Of a DNA stretch of 27,605 bases, positions 23,489 to 25,403 are shown in pieces. Numbering within the stretch: the first letter of the stretch is position 1; each line of letters begins with the position of its first letter. A model generated the notes under the pieces. That model was not told where the DNA came from, searched no databases, and saw only the letters and a list, made by a program, of their open reading frames with translations. The stretch is from a virus (taxonomy: Duplodnaviria > Heunggongvirae > Uroviricota > Caudoviricetes): positions 1 to 27,605 of the IMG/VR virus record IMGVR_UViG_2534681674_000034. One strand, written 5' to 3'. Position numbers and translations under genes: made by a program.

Positions 23489-23704
23489 ATGTACCAGATG
23501 GAAAAAATCACAACGGGTGTGTCATACACCACGTCAGCGGTGGGGACGGGATACTGGTTACTGCAGCTGCTGGACAAAGTCTCTCCGTCCCAGTGGGTGG
23601 CGATAGGTGTGCTGGGGAGTCTGCTGTTTGGCCTGCTGACGTATCTTACTAACCTGTATTTCAAAATCAGAGAGGACCGTCGTAAGGCGGCGCGGGGAGA
23701 GTAA
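23489..23704 (+). CDS. S: Pinholin (phage 21 S21-type), 71 aa with dual-start motif MYQM
   Basis: ...[41 protein letters not shown] resembles S21. GGGAGACGGGG upstream. Confidence 0.85.
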
Positions 23705-23708
23705 AGCG

Positions 23709-24053
23709 ATGAAGAAAAAATACGAACTGGTTGTTAAAGGGATAAATAATTACCCGGATAAGATTACTGTTACTGTGGCACTGGAAATTGGTGGGTATCC
23801 GTCACTGTTGTTGCCAGATGTGGCGATTAGTCTTGACCGTACTGAAGGAGCCACGCTGGAGTTTTACGAAGCTGAGGCGAAAAAGCAGGCGAAGCAGTTT
23901 TTCATGGATGTTGCTGCCGGGTTATGTGAAGGGGATGGTCCGTTGCCGGAAAAGCGGCCCATCATTTTAGAGGCGCAGGATGTGTTGATAACCTACAGAG
24001 GAAAACTACCGGGAATAATTACTGGTTCTCTGAAGACTCCACCGCTGGCCTGA
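23709..24053 (+). CDS. Hypothetical protein between holin and endolysin, 114 aa
   Basis: ORF with GGGGAGAG upstream. No family recognised. Confidence 0.5.
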   Translation: MKKKYELVVKGINNYPDKITVTVALEIGGYPSLLLPDVAISLDRTEGATLEFYEAEAKKQAKQFFMDVAAGLCEGDGPLPEKRPIILEAQDVLITYRGKLPGIITGSLKTPPLA

Positions 24054-24103
24054 AGACTTAACATATCCAGGGATTTGAAATCGATAAATCCTGATAAATA
24101 TCC

Positions 24104-24637
24104 ATGAACGCAAAAATCAGATACGGCCTGTCGGCTGCCGTTCTGGCGCTGATTGGTGCAGGGGCGTCTGCGCCTGAAATCCTCGACCAGTTTCTGGATG
24201 AAAAGGAAGGTAACCACACCACGGCATACCGTGATGGTGCGGGTATCTGGACCATCTGCCGCGGTGCCATCCTGGTGGATGGTAAACCTGTCGTTCCGGG
24301 CATGAAGTTGTCGAAGGAAAAATGCGACCGGGTTAACGCCATTGAGCGTGATAAGGCGCTGGCATGGGTGGAGAAAAACATCAAAGTGCCGCTGACCGAA
24401 CCCCAGAAAGCGGGGATCGCGTCATTCTGTCCGTACAACATTGGTCCCGGTAAGTGTTTCCCGTCGACGTTTTACAGACGAATTAATGCAGGTGATCGAA
24501 AAGGTGCCTGCGAAGCGATTCGCTGGTGGATTAAGGACGGTGGCAGAGACTGCCGTATTCGTTCAAACAACTGTTACGGTCAGGTATCCCGTCGTGACCA
24601 GGAGAGCGCGCTGGCGTGCTGGGGAATCGACAGATAA
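24104..24637 (+). CDS. R: SAR endolysin (T4-lysozyme-like muramidase with N-terminal signal-anchor-release segment)
   Basis: N-terminal hydrophobic YGLSAAVLALIGAGASA. Catalytic E-8-D-5-T pattern (EGNHTTAYRDGAGIWT). Resembles phage 21 R. Confidence 0.85.
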   Translation: MNAKIRYGLSAAVLALIGAGASAPEILDQFLDEKEGNHTTAYRDGAGIWTICRGAILVDGKPVVPGMKLSKEKCDRVNAIERDKALAWVEKNIKVPLTEPQKAGIASFCPYNIGPGKCFPSTFYRRINAGDRKGACEAIRWWIKDGGRDCRIRSNNCYGQVSRRDQESALACWGIDR

Positions 24638-24731
24638 GAAGAATATTTTGCTGAAAAATGAGGTTTGCTCACACGGACGGATAACACGAAATCCTGCGAA
24701 CTGACAAAAACTAAGTGAATAAAAGTAAAAA

Positions 24732-24763
24732 CCCCGTTTGTTGGCTGCAAGCGGGGTTTTGTG
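24732..24763 (+). terminator. Intrinsic terminator between endolysin and spanin genes
   Basis: CCCCGTTTG-TTGGCTG-CAAGCGGGG (9-bp stem, one G-U) followed by TTTT. Confidence 0.55.
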
Positions 24764-24796
24764 TTTCCTGACTCTGGAAAAGTCAAAGGAGAAAGT

Positions 24797-24934
24797 GTGT
24801 TTGATTTTAGCAAACTGATTCGGGAGATTCGAGTGATGGCTGAAAAATTATCTACCTGGAAGTTCATTCTTATCTGGCGGGTGTTTGTGATTATGGCCTC
24901 CGGTTATTTCATCGGTCAGATACGCTGGTGGTGA
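24797..24934 (+). CDS. Small hydrophobic protein, 45 aa from GTG (or 32 aa from ATG 24836), immediately upstream of Rz (below ORF-track cutoff)
   Basis: AAGGAGAAA SD. Translation ...MAEKLSTWKFILIWRVFVIMASGYFIGQIRWW. Stop 1 nt before the Rz ATG. Confidence 0.35.
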   Translation: MFDFSKLIREIRVMAEKLSTWKFILIWRVFVIMASGYFIGQIRWW

Positions 24935-24935
24935 A

Positions 24936-25403
24936 ATGAACCGCGTACTGTGCGTGGTCATCATTGCCCTGCTGGTGGCCTGTGGTGCGCTTAGTCTGGG
25001 GCTGAATCATTACCGTGATAACGCCATAACCTACAAAGAGCAGCGCGATAAAAAAGTCAGTGAGCTGGAGCTGGCAAATGCAACCATTACTGATATGCAG
25101 CAGCGCCAGCGTGATGTTGCTGCACTTGATGCCAGATACTCGAGGGAATTAGCCGATGCGAGAGCTGAAAATGAAACTCTTCGCGCTGACGTTGCCGCTG
25201 GTCACCGTAGCCTGCGGATCAACGCCACCTGTCCAGGTCCCGTGCGTGAAGCCACCGGCACCGCCCGCGTGGATAATGCAACCGGCCCCCAACTGGCAGA
25301 CACCGTTACACGGGATTATTTCATCCTCAGAGAACGGTTGATGACAATGCAGAAGCAGCTGGAAGGGGCACAGGACTATATCCGCACTCAGTGCCTGAAC
25401 TAA
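24936..25403 (+). CDS. Rz: Rz inner-membrane spanin (i-spanin)
   Basis: 155-aa ORF with N-terminal TM segment and coiled-coil-like periplasmic part. Contains embedded Rz1 in the +1 frame. Confidence 0.85.
   Translation: MNRVLCVVIIALLVACGALSLGLNHYRDNAITYKEQRDKKVSELELANATITDMQQRQRDVAALDARYSRELADARAENETLRADVAAGHRSLRINATCPGPVREATGTARVDNATGPQLADTVTRDYFILRERLMTMQKQLEGAQDYIRTQCLN
25171..25341 (+). CDS. Rz1: Rz1 outer-membrane lipoprotein spanin (o-spanin), embedded in Rz
   Basis: MKLFALTLPLVTVAC... signal with lipobox Cys, then proline-rich PPAPPAWIMQPAPNWQTPL resembling lambda Rz1. Confidence 0.8.
   Translation: MKLFALTLPLVTVACGSTPPVQVPCVKPPAPPAWIMQPAPNWQTPLHGIISSSENG

Follow-up and report, generated by a model that had tools for sequence, protein, structure and literature searches.

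What does it mean when the genes of a phage lysis cassette, contiguous in lambda-like and Qin-like relatives, are held apart by additional sequence? The question is raised by positions 23489-25403 of a 27,605-nucleotide stretch of tailed-phage DNA (IMG/VR record IMGVR_UViG_2534681674_000034; the whole stretch is called the window below). Here the phage-21-type holin gene (S), endolysin gene (R) and spanin genes (Rz and Rz1) are interrupted twice, by a 114-aa open reading frame (ORF) of the DUF1327/YdfR family between S and R, and by a terminator-like hairpin followed by a 45-aa ORF between R and Rz. A preliminary description of this DNA had called the cassette atypical, and had considered that the inserts encode lysis regulators or that the spanin genes are transcribed separately. 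We favor a plainer answer, to which we assign a probability of roughly 0.65: the cassette is an ordinary S21-type variant in a lambda-like prophage at the Rac site, with two independent, horizontally acquired inserts that are read by antiterminated late transcription.

The arrangement itself is readily found elsewhere. Matches that span 80% or more of the 2.1-kb region occur in 1769 of 5426 complete Escherichia coli genomes and in 80 phage records. Identity is 97-100% in H-19B and in many Shiga toxin (Stx) phages of the Stx1/Stx2c kind, several Stx1a phages reaching 99.2%. The module consisting of the hairpin and the small ORF is present in 898 of the 5426 genomes, and about half of E. coli genomes carry some DUF1327 copy. 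The arrangement is thus an ordinary, widespread phage-21-type variant of E. coli prophages, of the H-19B, BP-4795 and many-Stx-phage type. The comparison with Stx-phage lysis regions that had been proposed at the outset recovers the same layout in characterized phages such as H-19B, and the word 'atypical' has to be given up: as the outcome stands, the supposedly atypical arrangement is the standard one.

The features to which we refer, in window coordinates, are the following.

23422-23450, plus strand: intrinsic-terminator-like hairpin, 12 pairs with a T6 tail, -17 kcal/mol, z -4.2
23489-23704, plus strand: phage-21-type class II holin (pinholin) gene, 71 aa; PF04971, E 1e-32, aa 5-67 of 71
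23709-24053, plus strand: DUF1327/YdfR-family gene, 114 aa; PF07041, E 4.7e-46
24104-24637, plus strand: lysozyme gene of signal-arrest-release (SAR) type, an R21-like endolysin; PF00959, E 2.2e-24
24638-24935: gap between R and Rz, 298 bp
24638-24727, plus strand: AT-rich stretch 3' of the endolysin gene, G+C fraction (GC) 0.37
24728-24760, either strand: terminator-like hairpin, 14 pairs, -21.7 kcal/mol, z -4.05 against shuffles
24764-24792, plus strand: leader stem that pairs the Shine-Dalgarno sequence, from a single-sequence fold
24797-24934, plus strand: gene for a 45-aa single-pass membrane protein, phrog_6632, GTG start
24936-25403, plus strand: gene for the inner-membrane spanin (i-spanin) Rz; PF03245, E 3.4e-47
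25156-25341, plus strand: gene for the outer-membrane spanin (o-spanin) Rz1, inside Rz in the +1 frame; PF06085, E 9.6e-21

The core of the cassette is a bona fide phage-21-type one, with an S21-type holin, a SAR lysozyme and an Rz gene that contains an embedded Rz1 lipoprotein gene. The holin, which PGAP names 'class II holin family protein', has the dual-start motif, with in-frame Met1 and Met4 and a Tyr-Gln extension (N-terminus MYQMEK, 23489-23500). Read from its translation, the lysozyme has a Gly/Ala-rich, SAR-like N-terminal segment (MNAKIRYGLSAAVLALIGAGASAP / LSAAVLALIGAGASAP), from which release from the membrane is predicted, and an E-8-D-5-T catalytic motif; Rz1 likely starts at the ATG at 25171 (MKLFALTLPLVTVAC...). 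What departs from the usual pattern is contiguity, a 345-bp gene lying between S and R and a 298-bp gap between R and Rz. Contiguous genes are typical of the phage-21-type family, yet do not define it. In these structural respects the preliminary description is borne out: the ORF listing and the PF04971, PF07041 and PF00959 matches place the 114-aa ORF between pinholin and SAR endolysin; the gap of about 300 bp does contain a strong hairpin, now bounded at 24728-24760 rather than 24732-24763; and the 45-aa hydrophobic ORF has its good Shine-Dalgarno sequence (AGGAG) and ends 1 nt before the Rz ATG. Both inserts moreover prove to be conserved genetic units and not junk spacers.

We compared the cassette with those of Qin, mEp460, VT2-Sakai and H-19B; phage 21 itself (M65239) was left out of this set. 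The Stx1 phage H-19B (AF034975) repeats the layout element by element: S, the DUF1327 ORF, R, the 298-bp gap in which hairpin and small ORF lie, then Rz. The match covers 90% of the query at 97.6% identity, and the DUF1327 proteins are 100% identical; the H-19B record annotates S, R and Rz only, both inserts being unannotated. The Stx phage BP-4795 (AJ556162) shares the S-ORF47-R part but differs in the cargo of the R-Rz gap, which is ant plus the 48-aa ORF50 (phrog_4906). In K-12 Qin, where the order is essQ-ydfR-rrrQ-rzpQ/rzoQ, a DUF1327 gene likewise stands between an S21-type holin gene and a lysozyme gene, 4 nt after the holin stop. However, ydfR, rrrQ and rzpQ overlap, which leaves no gap between R and the spanin genes and no place for a hairpin or small ORF; the i-spanin belongs to the DUF2514 type, and the C-terminal part of YdfR is unlike that of the window protein. 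R and Rz also overlap in mEp460, which has DUF1327 but no small ORF. Cassettes of the lambda, VT2-Sakai and 933W type have the same core genes in the same order and lie at the end of the late operon, before cos. VT2-Sakai differs in that S is followed directly by R and that the R-Rz interval contains ant and a small, phrog_4906-like ORF that is not annotated.

The two inserts need not occur together. Both are found in 55 of the 63 IMG/VR loci with enough flank and the small ORF alone in 6, DUF1327 without the small ORF occurs in Qin and mEp460, and Sakai has neither. This separate occurrence shows the two inserts to be independent. Both also deviate in base composition, with a GC of 0.47 for the DUF1327 gene and 0.435 for the small-ORF insert as against 0.54-0.55 for the core lysis genes. 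As a side observation, the region matches as two pieces across 3135 bp, as against 2101 bp, in several O103/O111 strains, which indicates an insertion of about 1 kb inside the cassette in those strains.

The first insert, which starts 4 nt 3' of the holin stop, belongs to phrog_406; PF07041 matches aa 1-112 of 114 with a score of 155.4 bits against a cut-off of 25, and PGAP also assigns it to the DUF1327/YdfR family. Its product has no hydrophobic or membrane segment. An AlphaFold (AF2) model contains a beta-beta-beta-alpha domain over residues 1-73 (block-mean predicted local distance difference test, pLDDT, 73-89) and then a disordered tail, and the family as a whole shows about 100 conserved N-terminal residues and variable C-terminal extensions. 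The gene has the same position in K-12 Qin, mEp460, PhiR42_1, Evi, BP-4795 and H-19B, and the family is essentially limited to Escherichia and Shigella. The only member with experimental data is YdfR of K-12 (PMC13232886, a paper of 2026), which binds Rne residues 1-597, the catalytic half of RNase E, in bacterial two-hybrid and pull-down experiments, and with which DNase-resistant nucleic acid, or RNA, co-purifies (PMC13232886). Given these data and the lack of a membrane segment, a cytoplasmic, RNA-related accessory role would be the most likely one for the DUF1327 protein, in preference to the antiholin-like role suggested for the inserts in the preliminary description, of which this evidence gives no indication. 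Our literature search returned no description of a function for DUF1327 in lysis.

The position of the gene nevertheless invites a different interpretation, in which DUF1327 would be a dedicated regulator of the pinholin or the SAR endolysin, for example a cytoplasmic factor acting on S21 or on the R21 N-terminus, and not a factor of RNA metabolism. In the members examined it stands only beside S21-type holin genes, always 4 nt after the holin stop and 5' of a lysozyme gene, even in the divergent members of mEp460, PhiR42_1 and Evi, which are 41-57% identical. The Stx-type holin, with its start MYQM, would also lack the lysine at position 2 of the phage 21 holin (MKSM), which belongs to the antiholin function, so that a replacement antiholin might be needed. 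Against this, the gene is carried by 101 of 436 phage records with an S21-type holin, so that about three quarters of them have no DUF1327, the protein has no segment with which to enter the membrane, and the sole experimental data point to RNase E and RNA (PMC13232886). On balance we regard a dedicated regulator as unlikely, though credible enough to be taken seriously, and retain the RNA-related accessory role.

The second insert contains a genuine gene. Across 12 homologues, dN/dS (the ratio of nonsynonymous to synonymous rates) is 0.17 in the frame of the 45-aa ORF versus 0.74 and 1.75 in the other two frames, and this purifying selection identifies the ORF as a real protein-coding gene and not a chance reading frame; the identical protein (WP_000459347.1) is called by PGAP in strain ML35. 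The product begins with 22 amphipathic, net-positive residues, continues with a hydrophobic segment at about residues 23-42 and ends in RWW. Its topology is probably N-in, and three or four residues follow the membrane segment. Pfam (E <= 0.1), NCBIfam and PADLOC gave no match to it, and literature searches by protein accession, by phrog identifier and for small ORFs upstream of Rz returned no description of the small ORF or of its leader. Homologues, gathered by a protein search, context look-ups and a scan of one genome per species, come from Escherichia, Salmonella, Citrobacter, Yersinia, Edwardsiella, Providencia, Serratia, Brenneria, Sodalis, Symbiopectobacterium, Izhakiella, Trabulsiella and Dryocola. 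They represent a small family, of which 41 members turned up when 1.84 billion representative proteins were searched with a profile.

An internal ATG at codon 14 (24836), which would give a 32-aa form, is invariant in 12 of 12 homologues, as is a GGGAG lying 9 nt upstream of it (24822-24826 in the window). Serratia sp. Ag1 has the short form only, of 32/33 aa, which overlaps the stop of the preceding gene and is not accompanied by the hairpin; the 32-aa part therefore looks like the core of the protein. A dual start (45/32 aa) is accordingly a possible feature of the gene as read from these alignments.

The hairpin belongs with the small ORF, as the left part of a portable unit that is conserved across Enterobacterales. 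With an A-run on its 5' side and a T-rich run on its 3' side, it resembles a bidirectional intrinsic terminator. A hairpin of the form AAA(A/G)CCCCG...CGGGG(T/C)TTT lies 35-40 nt before the start codon in 13 homologous loci, whatever lies upstream. When 14 loci from 12 genera are aligned, 96.7% of the alignment cells of its 13-pair helix are paired and 6 of the 13 pairs show compensatory changes (for example GCTCCG/CGGAGC in Edwardsiella); none of 500 shuffles reaches the observed value, slid controls are 35-59% paired, and RNAalifold independently predicts the same helix. The conserved unit starts about 12 nt before the hairpin, and 36 nt separate the hairpin from the start codon in the window. 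Within this leader, the T-rich tail supplies a UUUCCU that base-pairs with AGGAGA, the Shine-Dalgarno sequence of the small ORF. The Shine-Dalgarno sequence is paired in most of the 13 homologue folds (single-sequence folds only), and the inner stem covaries (CCUUG/CAAGG, CGUUA/UAACG, GACU/AGUC); the leader stem is not recovered by RNAalifold on the MAFFT alignment. Together, the upstream terminator, the occluded ribosome-binding site and the GTG start would be expected to hold expression of the small ORF very low. What is new here is that hairpin, leader and small ORF belong to one conserved, portable unit, which shows structural covariation and may have a dual start.

An Rfam scan of 22800-26000 yielded a sub-threshold rimP-leader match on the minus strand, which we set aside as noise that reflects the likeness to a terminator, and miRNA-like matches on the cosB-like inverted repeat described below, which were likewise rejected as noise.

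Two alternatives would give a separate RNA a part in this unit. One such proposal is a type I toxin-antitoxin pair, in which an antisense RNA would end at the bidirectional hairpin. The small hydrophobic product with its restrained translation, the good minus-strand T-run at the hairpin and one promoter-like match on the minus strand (24919-24890, inside the small ORF, and the only such match found) would all suit it. Outside the E. coli lineage, however, none of the homologues has that match, and the unit contains no minus-strand promoter that they share; we judge the proposal to be extremely improbable and reject it on this lack of conservation. In a second proposal, a regulatory RNA that arises from the 3' untranslated region (3'-UTR) of the endolysin gene (24638-24770) would end at the hairpin, and would be comparable to the PasA/PasC small RNAs (sRNAs) encoded just upstream of the holin gene. 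In its favor, more than 300 phage records conserve the first 90 nt 3' of the endolysin gene irrespective of the cargo, and Hfq-dependent Pas sRNAs with intrinsic terminators are known from the neighboring intergenic region. Across genera, however, it is the small ORF that the hairpin accompanies, not the 90 nt on its 5' side, and 'ant'-type phages have these 90 nt without the hairpin; the only Rfam match is the minus-strand one already dismissed, and the Pas papers contain no such sRNA. A regulatory RNA of this kind is therefore very unlikely, and we continue to treat the hairpin as part of the small-ORF unit. The 90 nt themselves (24638-24727) are about 88-93% conserved in those records, and an RNA derived from the 3'-UTR is conceivable on that observation.

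Where the unit occurs is informative about its nature. Its roughly 210 bp (24728-24934: hairpin, leader and GTG-started 45-aa ORF) lie between endolysin and i-spanin genes in E. coli, Salmonella, Citrobacter, E. fergusonii and Edwardsiella, and in four genera the small-ORF stop is 1 nt from the spanin ATG. In Providencia, on a short contig, the unit lies 3' of what is, read from its translation, probably a peptidoglycan hydrolase gene. The genes with which it is combined in these lysis regions are diverse.

Holin partners: S21, HP1-type, holin_8 and lambda-S-type
Endolysin partners: PF00959, GH19, GH108 and one without a family match
i-spanin partners: Rz and DUF2514

In Salmonella phage SEN34, Yersinia, Dryocola and Serratia the same unit separates genes for the baseplate spike from those for the wedge; elsewhere it lies 3' of a tail-fibre gene in Sodalis, 3' of a DUF2612 gene in Izhakiella, and 3' of the gene for an LPD38-domain giant protein in Brenneria and Symbiopectobacterium. 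These tail and baseplate occurrences imply that it is neither specific to lysis nor a dedicated partner of the spanins. The unit is a mobile, moron-like component of late operons for which the endolysin/spanin junction is clearly a favored landing site. The R-Rz junction is a point at which cargo is swapped: in more than 250 phage records the similarity extends no further than the first 86-95 nt 3' of the endolysin gene, homology with 'ant'-type Stx phages ends just before the hairpin, and beyond the swap point VT2-Sakai and BP-4795 have ant and the small membrane ORF phrog_4906, while others have two different small ORFs.

Other lambdoid cassettes also carry different small single-pass membrane ORFs directly before Rz, of phrog_4906 and of another family. 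These small pre-Rz ORFs lie at 2841-2987 in VT2-Sakai (locus L005, unannotated), at 3558-3704 in BP-4795 (L002), and at 2155-2483 and 2032-2282 in two further loci (L006 and L007). Small membrane ORFs in front of the i-spanin gene thus seem to be a general, unstudied feature.

Does the favored site reveal a function in lysis? The small membrane protein could be a factor in lysis timing or spanin function, either a dual-start 45/32-aa pair of the holin/antiholin kind or a modulator of the i-spanin, and the tight gating of its gene would then serve lysis control. Such a factor would explain placement between endolysin and i-spanin genes in five taxa amid unrelated holins, endolysins and spanins, as well as the Providencia copy near a probable hydrolase gene, and it would fit the 1-nt spacing to the spanin ATG in four genera, the invariant ATG14 with its GGGAG in 12 of 12 homologues and the short-form-only gene of Serratia. 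It is harder to reconcile with the presence of the same unit at baseplate spike/wedge sites and 3' of tail-fibre or LPD38-domain genes, with the many S21-type cassettes, the majority, that lyse without the small ORF, or with the lack of any Pfam, NCBIfam or PADLOC match. The C-terminal WW, moreover, is kept outside lysis contexts, so that the small ORF must do more than provide Rz with a ribosome-binding site. We consider a lysis factor unlikely, though a serious contender, and continue to regard the unit as a mobile late-operon insert.

A known accessory protein of SAR endolysins offers a point of reference. The Mu gp25 'releasin' (DUF2730) is a 99-aa membrane protein with N-out/C-in topology and a 73-aa acidic cytoplasmic domain (PMC9239132). 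It resembles the small-ORF product in being a small accessory membrane protein encoded near SAR endolysin and spanin genes. The product of the small ORF differs in having 45 aa and the reverse architecture, and in occurring also with non-SAR endolysins and in tail modules. Because of that architecture, and with no DUF2730/Pfam match (E <= 0.1), an identification as releasin was rejected.

Mobility of this kind also recalls the lambdoid morons. In its classical form, as described by Hendrix and colleagues, a moron has its own promoter upstream and a terminator downstream and is exchanged between unrelated phages. The inserts are moron-like in lying between genes that are adjacent in relatives and in their deviating GC; the small-ORF unit is unlike a moron in having no detectable promoter, its hairpin upstream, its stop abutting the Rz ATG and its ribosome-binding site occluded. 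Could the small ORF still be expressed from the prophage, for instance as a superinfection-exclusion membrane protein, with the hairpin insulating it from neighboring transcription? Its movement between unrelated late-operon sites, the GC below that of its flanks, the small inner-membrane product and the tandem paralogous copies with homologous leaders in E. fergusonii are all compatible with this idea. But a consensus scan finds no promoter within the conserved unit and no match in the 36-nt leader, and the terminator lies upstream of the gene, not downstream. Expression from the prophage is thus distinctly unlikely, and late expression with the rest of the operon remains the preferred view.

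The E. fergusonii prophage (locus L009, 3680-3907) has, directly upstream of its phrog_6632 homologue, a second small membrane ORF of 50 aa with a KWW end, phrog_12997, whose hairpin-leader is homologous to the phrog_6632 hairpin-leaders of Izhakiella and Trabulsiella; the two appear to be paralogous cassettes in tandem. Dryocola (locus L029) likewise has a relative of this second ORF, there 5' of a truncated phrog_6632 gene.

How, then, are the genes beyond the hairpin transcribed? The identical stretch is present in E. coli strain 2000-3039, which is RefSeq-annotated across the whole window, and the window represents a lambdoid prophage at the Rac site (intR, xisR, ralR, recET, kil). A Q-like gene (DUF1133, 18888-19442) is followed by a sialic-acid esterase gene, the lysis genes, cos and the Nu1/A terminase genes. 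The cos region comprises GGGCGGCGACCT at 25656-25667, a lambda-type cohesive-end sequence that lies between Rz and Nu1, and a 26-nt inverted repeat, 85% complementary, at 25764-25820, which looks cosB-like, of the lambda cos/cosB type; Nu1 begins at 25845. The lysis cassette is placed as in lambda, at the promoter-proximal end of a long late operon dependent on Q-type antitermination. Q-modified polymerase ignores terminators in late operons of the lambda type, and this lambda-like layout leads us to expect late antiterminated read-through. Antitermination is also described as controlling the late promoters of Stx phages (PMC7547250).

The alternative raised in the preliminary description, that the terminator splits the cassette and makes the small ORF and Rz/Rz1 a separately promoted transcription unit, has the strong hairpin between R and Rz to recommend it. 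However, a consensus scan found no sigma-70-like promoter on the plus strand in 23300-25700, the 36 nt between hairpin and start codon leave no room for one, the small-ORF stop lies 1 nt before the Rz ATG, which suggests translational coupling, and the terminase genes further downstream share this orientation, just as they do in lambda. We consider separately transcribed spanins highly improbable, and prefer read-through of a single late operon.

Put together, the favored reading suggests the following scheme. The DUF1327 gene would have taken over the position and the ribosome-binding site directly behind the holin gene, and its protein, by analogy with YdfR, may act late in infection on host RNA metabolism, through RNase E and RNA binding, and not in the membrane. 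The small-ORF unit would have landed exactly at the endolysin/spanin junction, with its stop abutting the Rz start so that translation of Rz could stay coupled to an upstream ORF. Antiterminated polymerase would read the whole stretch as a late operon through both internal terminators; in the absence of antitermination, the hairpins would keep the lysis, spanin and packaging genes silent. Three features, a terminator 5' of the gene, a weak start codon and an occluded ribosome-binding site, would jointly limit the small membrane protein to a very low level. What the analysis establishes is which parts are present, where they lie, how far they are conserved and whether they code, along with the covariation of the hairpin, the independence of the inserts and the lack of a promoter match. 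We infer Q-type read-through, translational coupling, low expression of the small ORF and the RNase E-related role of this DUF1327 copy.

Several points weigh against this scheme. The small ORF has landed repeatedly at the endolysin/spanin junction, in about six unrelated cassettes, and the strict linkage of DUF1327 to S21/R21-type cassettes is not accounted for by our explanation; each suggests a lysis-related function. The RNase E data concern Qin YdfR, which diverges from the window protein after about residue 65, and overproduction of YdfR had little effect on the transcriptome (PMC13232886). The tail and baseplate contexts look P2- or Mu-like, and late antitermination is not expected there. 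A strong terminator placed in an operon as essential as that of the baseplate would do harm, so termination may not be the main task of the hairpin, part of whose action may be on the RNA itself, through its stability or the control of translation. The window's own copy of the small ORF has an arginine at position 28 (24879-24881, IWRVF), inside the membrane segment, where most homologues have Leu and one has Gln. This copy may therefore be an impaired, weakened or altered allele, although the identical Arg28 protein is nonetheless annotated in strain ML35. Finally, our literature searches turned up no phage for which either insert has been deleted or its expression followed.

A more ambitious interpretation can be built on the same observations, namely that an undescribed portable cassette of temperate Enterobacterales phages brings a tightly gated, dual-start (45/32 aa) inner-membrane peptide into late operons, with a preference for the endolysin/i-spanin junction, where it tunes the last step of lysis through spanin activity or disruption of the envelope, and that DUF1327 is a modulator of RNase E hard-wired to the pinholin; translation of the small ORF would then set the level of the coupled i-spanin. 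We hold this combination to be doubtful, and retain the view of two independent inserts in an ordinary late operon. Either way, the cassette controls phage release and, in relatives such as H-19B and the Stx1/Stx2c phages, release of Shiga toxin, and somewhere between a fifth and a half of sequenced E. coli genomes carry the two conserved genes inside it. Should one of these genes alter the timing of lysis or the stability of late mRNA, toxin release and phage yield would be affected. The terminator and the leader with its occluded ribosome-binding site would also constitute a compact natural device for silencing a membrane peptide until late transcription.

Two further observations concern the 5' end of the lysis region. 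The intergenic stretch between the sialic-acid esterase and holin genes (23340-23455) ends in the strong terminator at 23422-23450, and most Stx phages match the final 69 nt of this stretch at 83-86% identity. Hfq-dependent prophage sRNAs, PasA/PasC, have been reported in the order esterase-PasA-holin-lysozyme (bioRxiv 10.64898/2026.05.13.724894). Judged by position alone, the hairpin at 23422-23450 is probably the terminator of an sRNA of the PasA/PasC type.

The second observation concerns the holin start. The phage 21 holin begins MKSMDK, with a Lys-Ser extension whose extra lysine is credited with making S21-71 an antiholin. The longer product in the window would then be without that lysine, and the Stx-type pinholins may lack a dual-start antiholin of the phage 21 kind.

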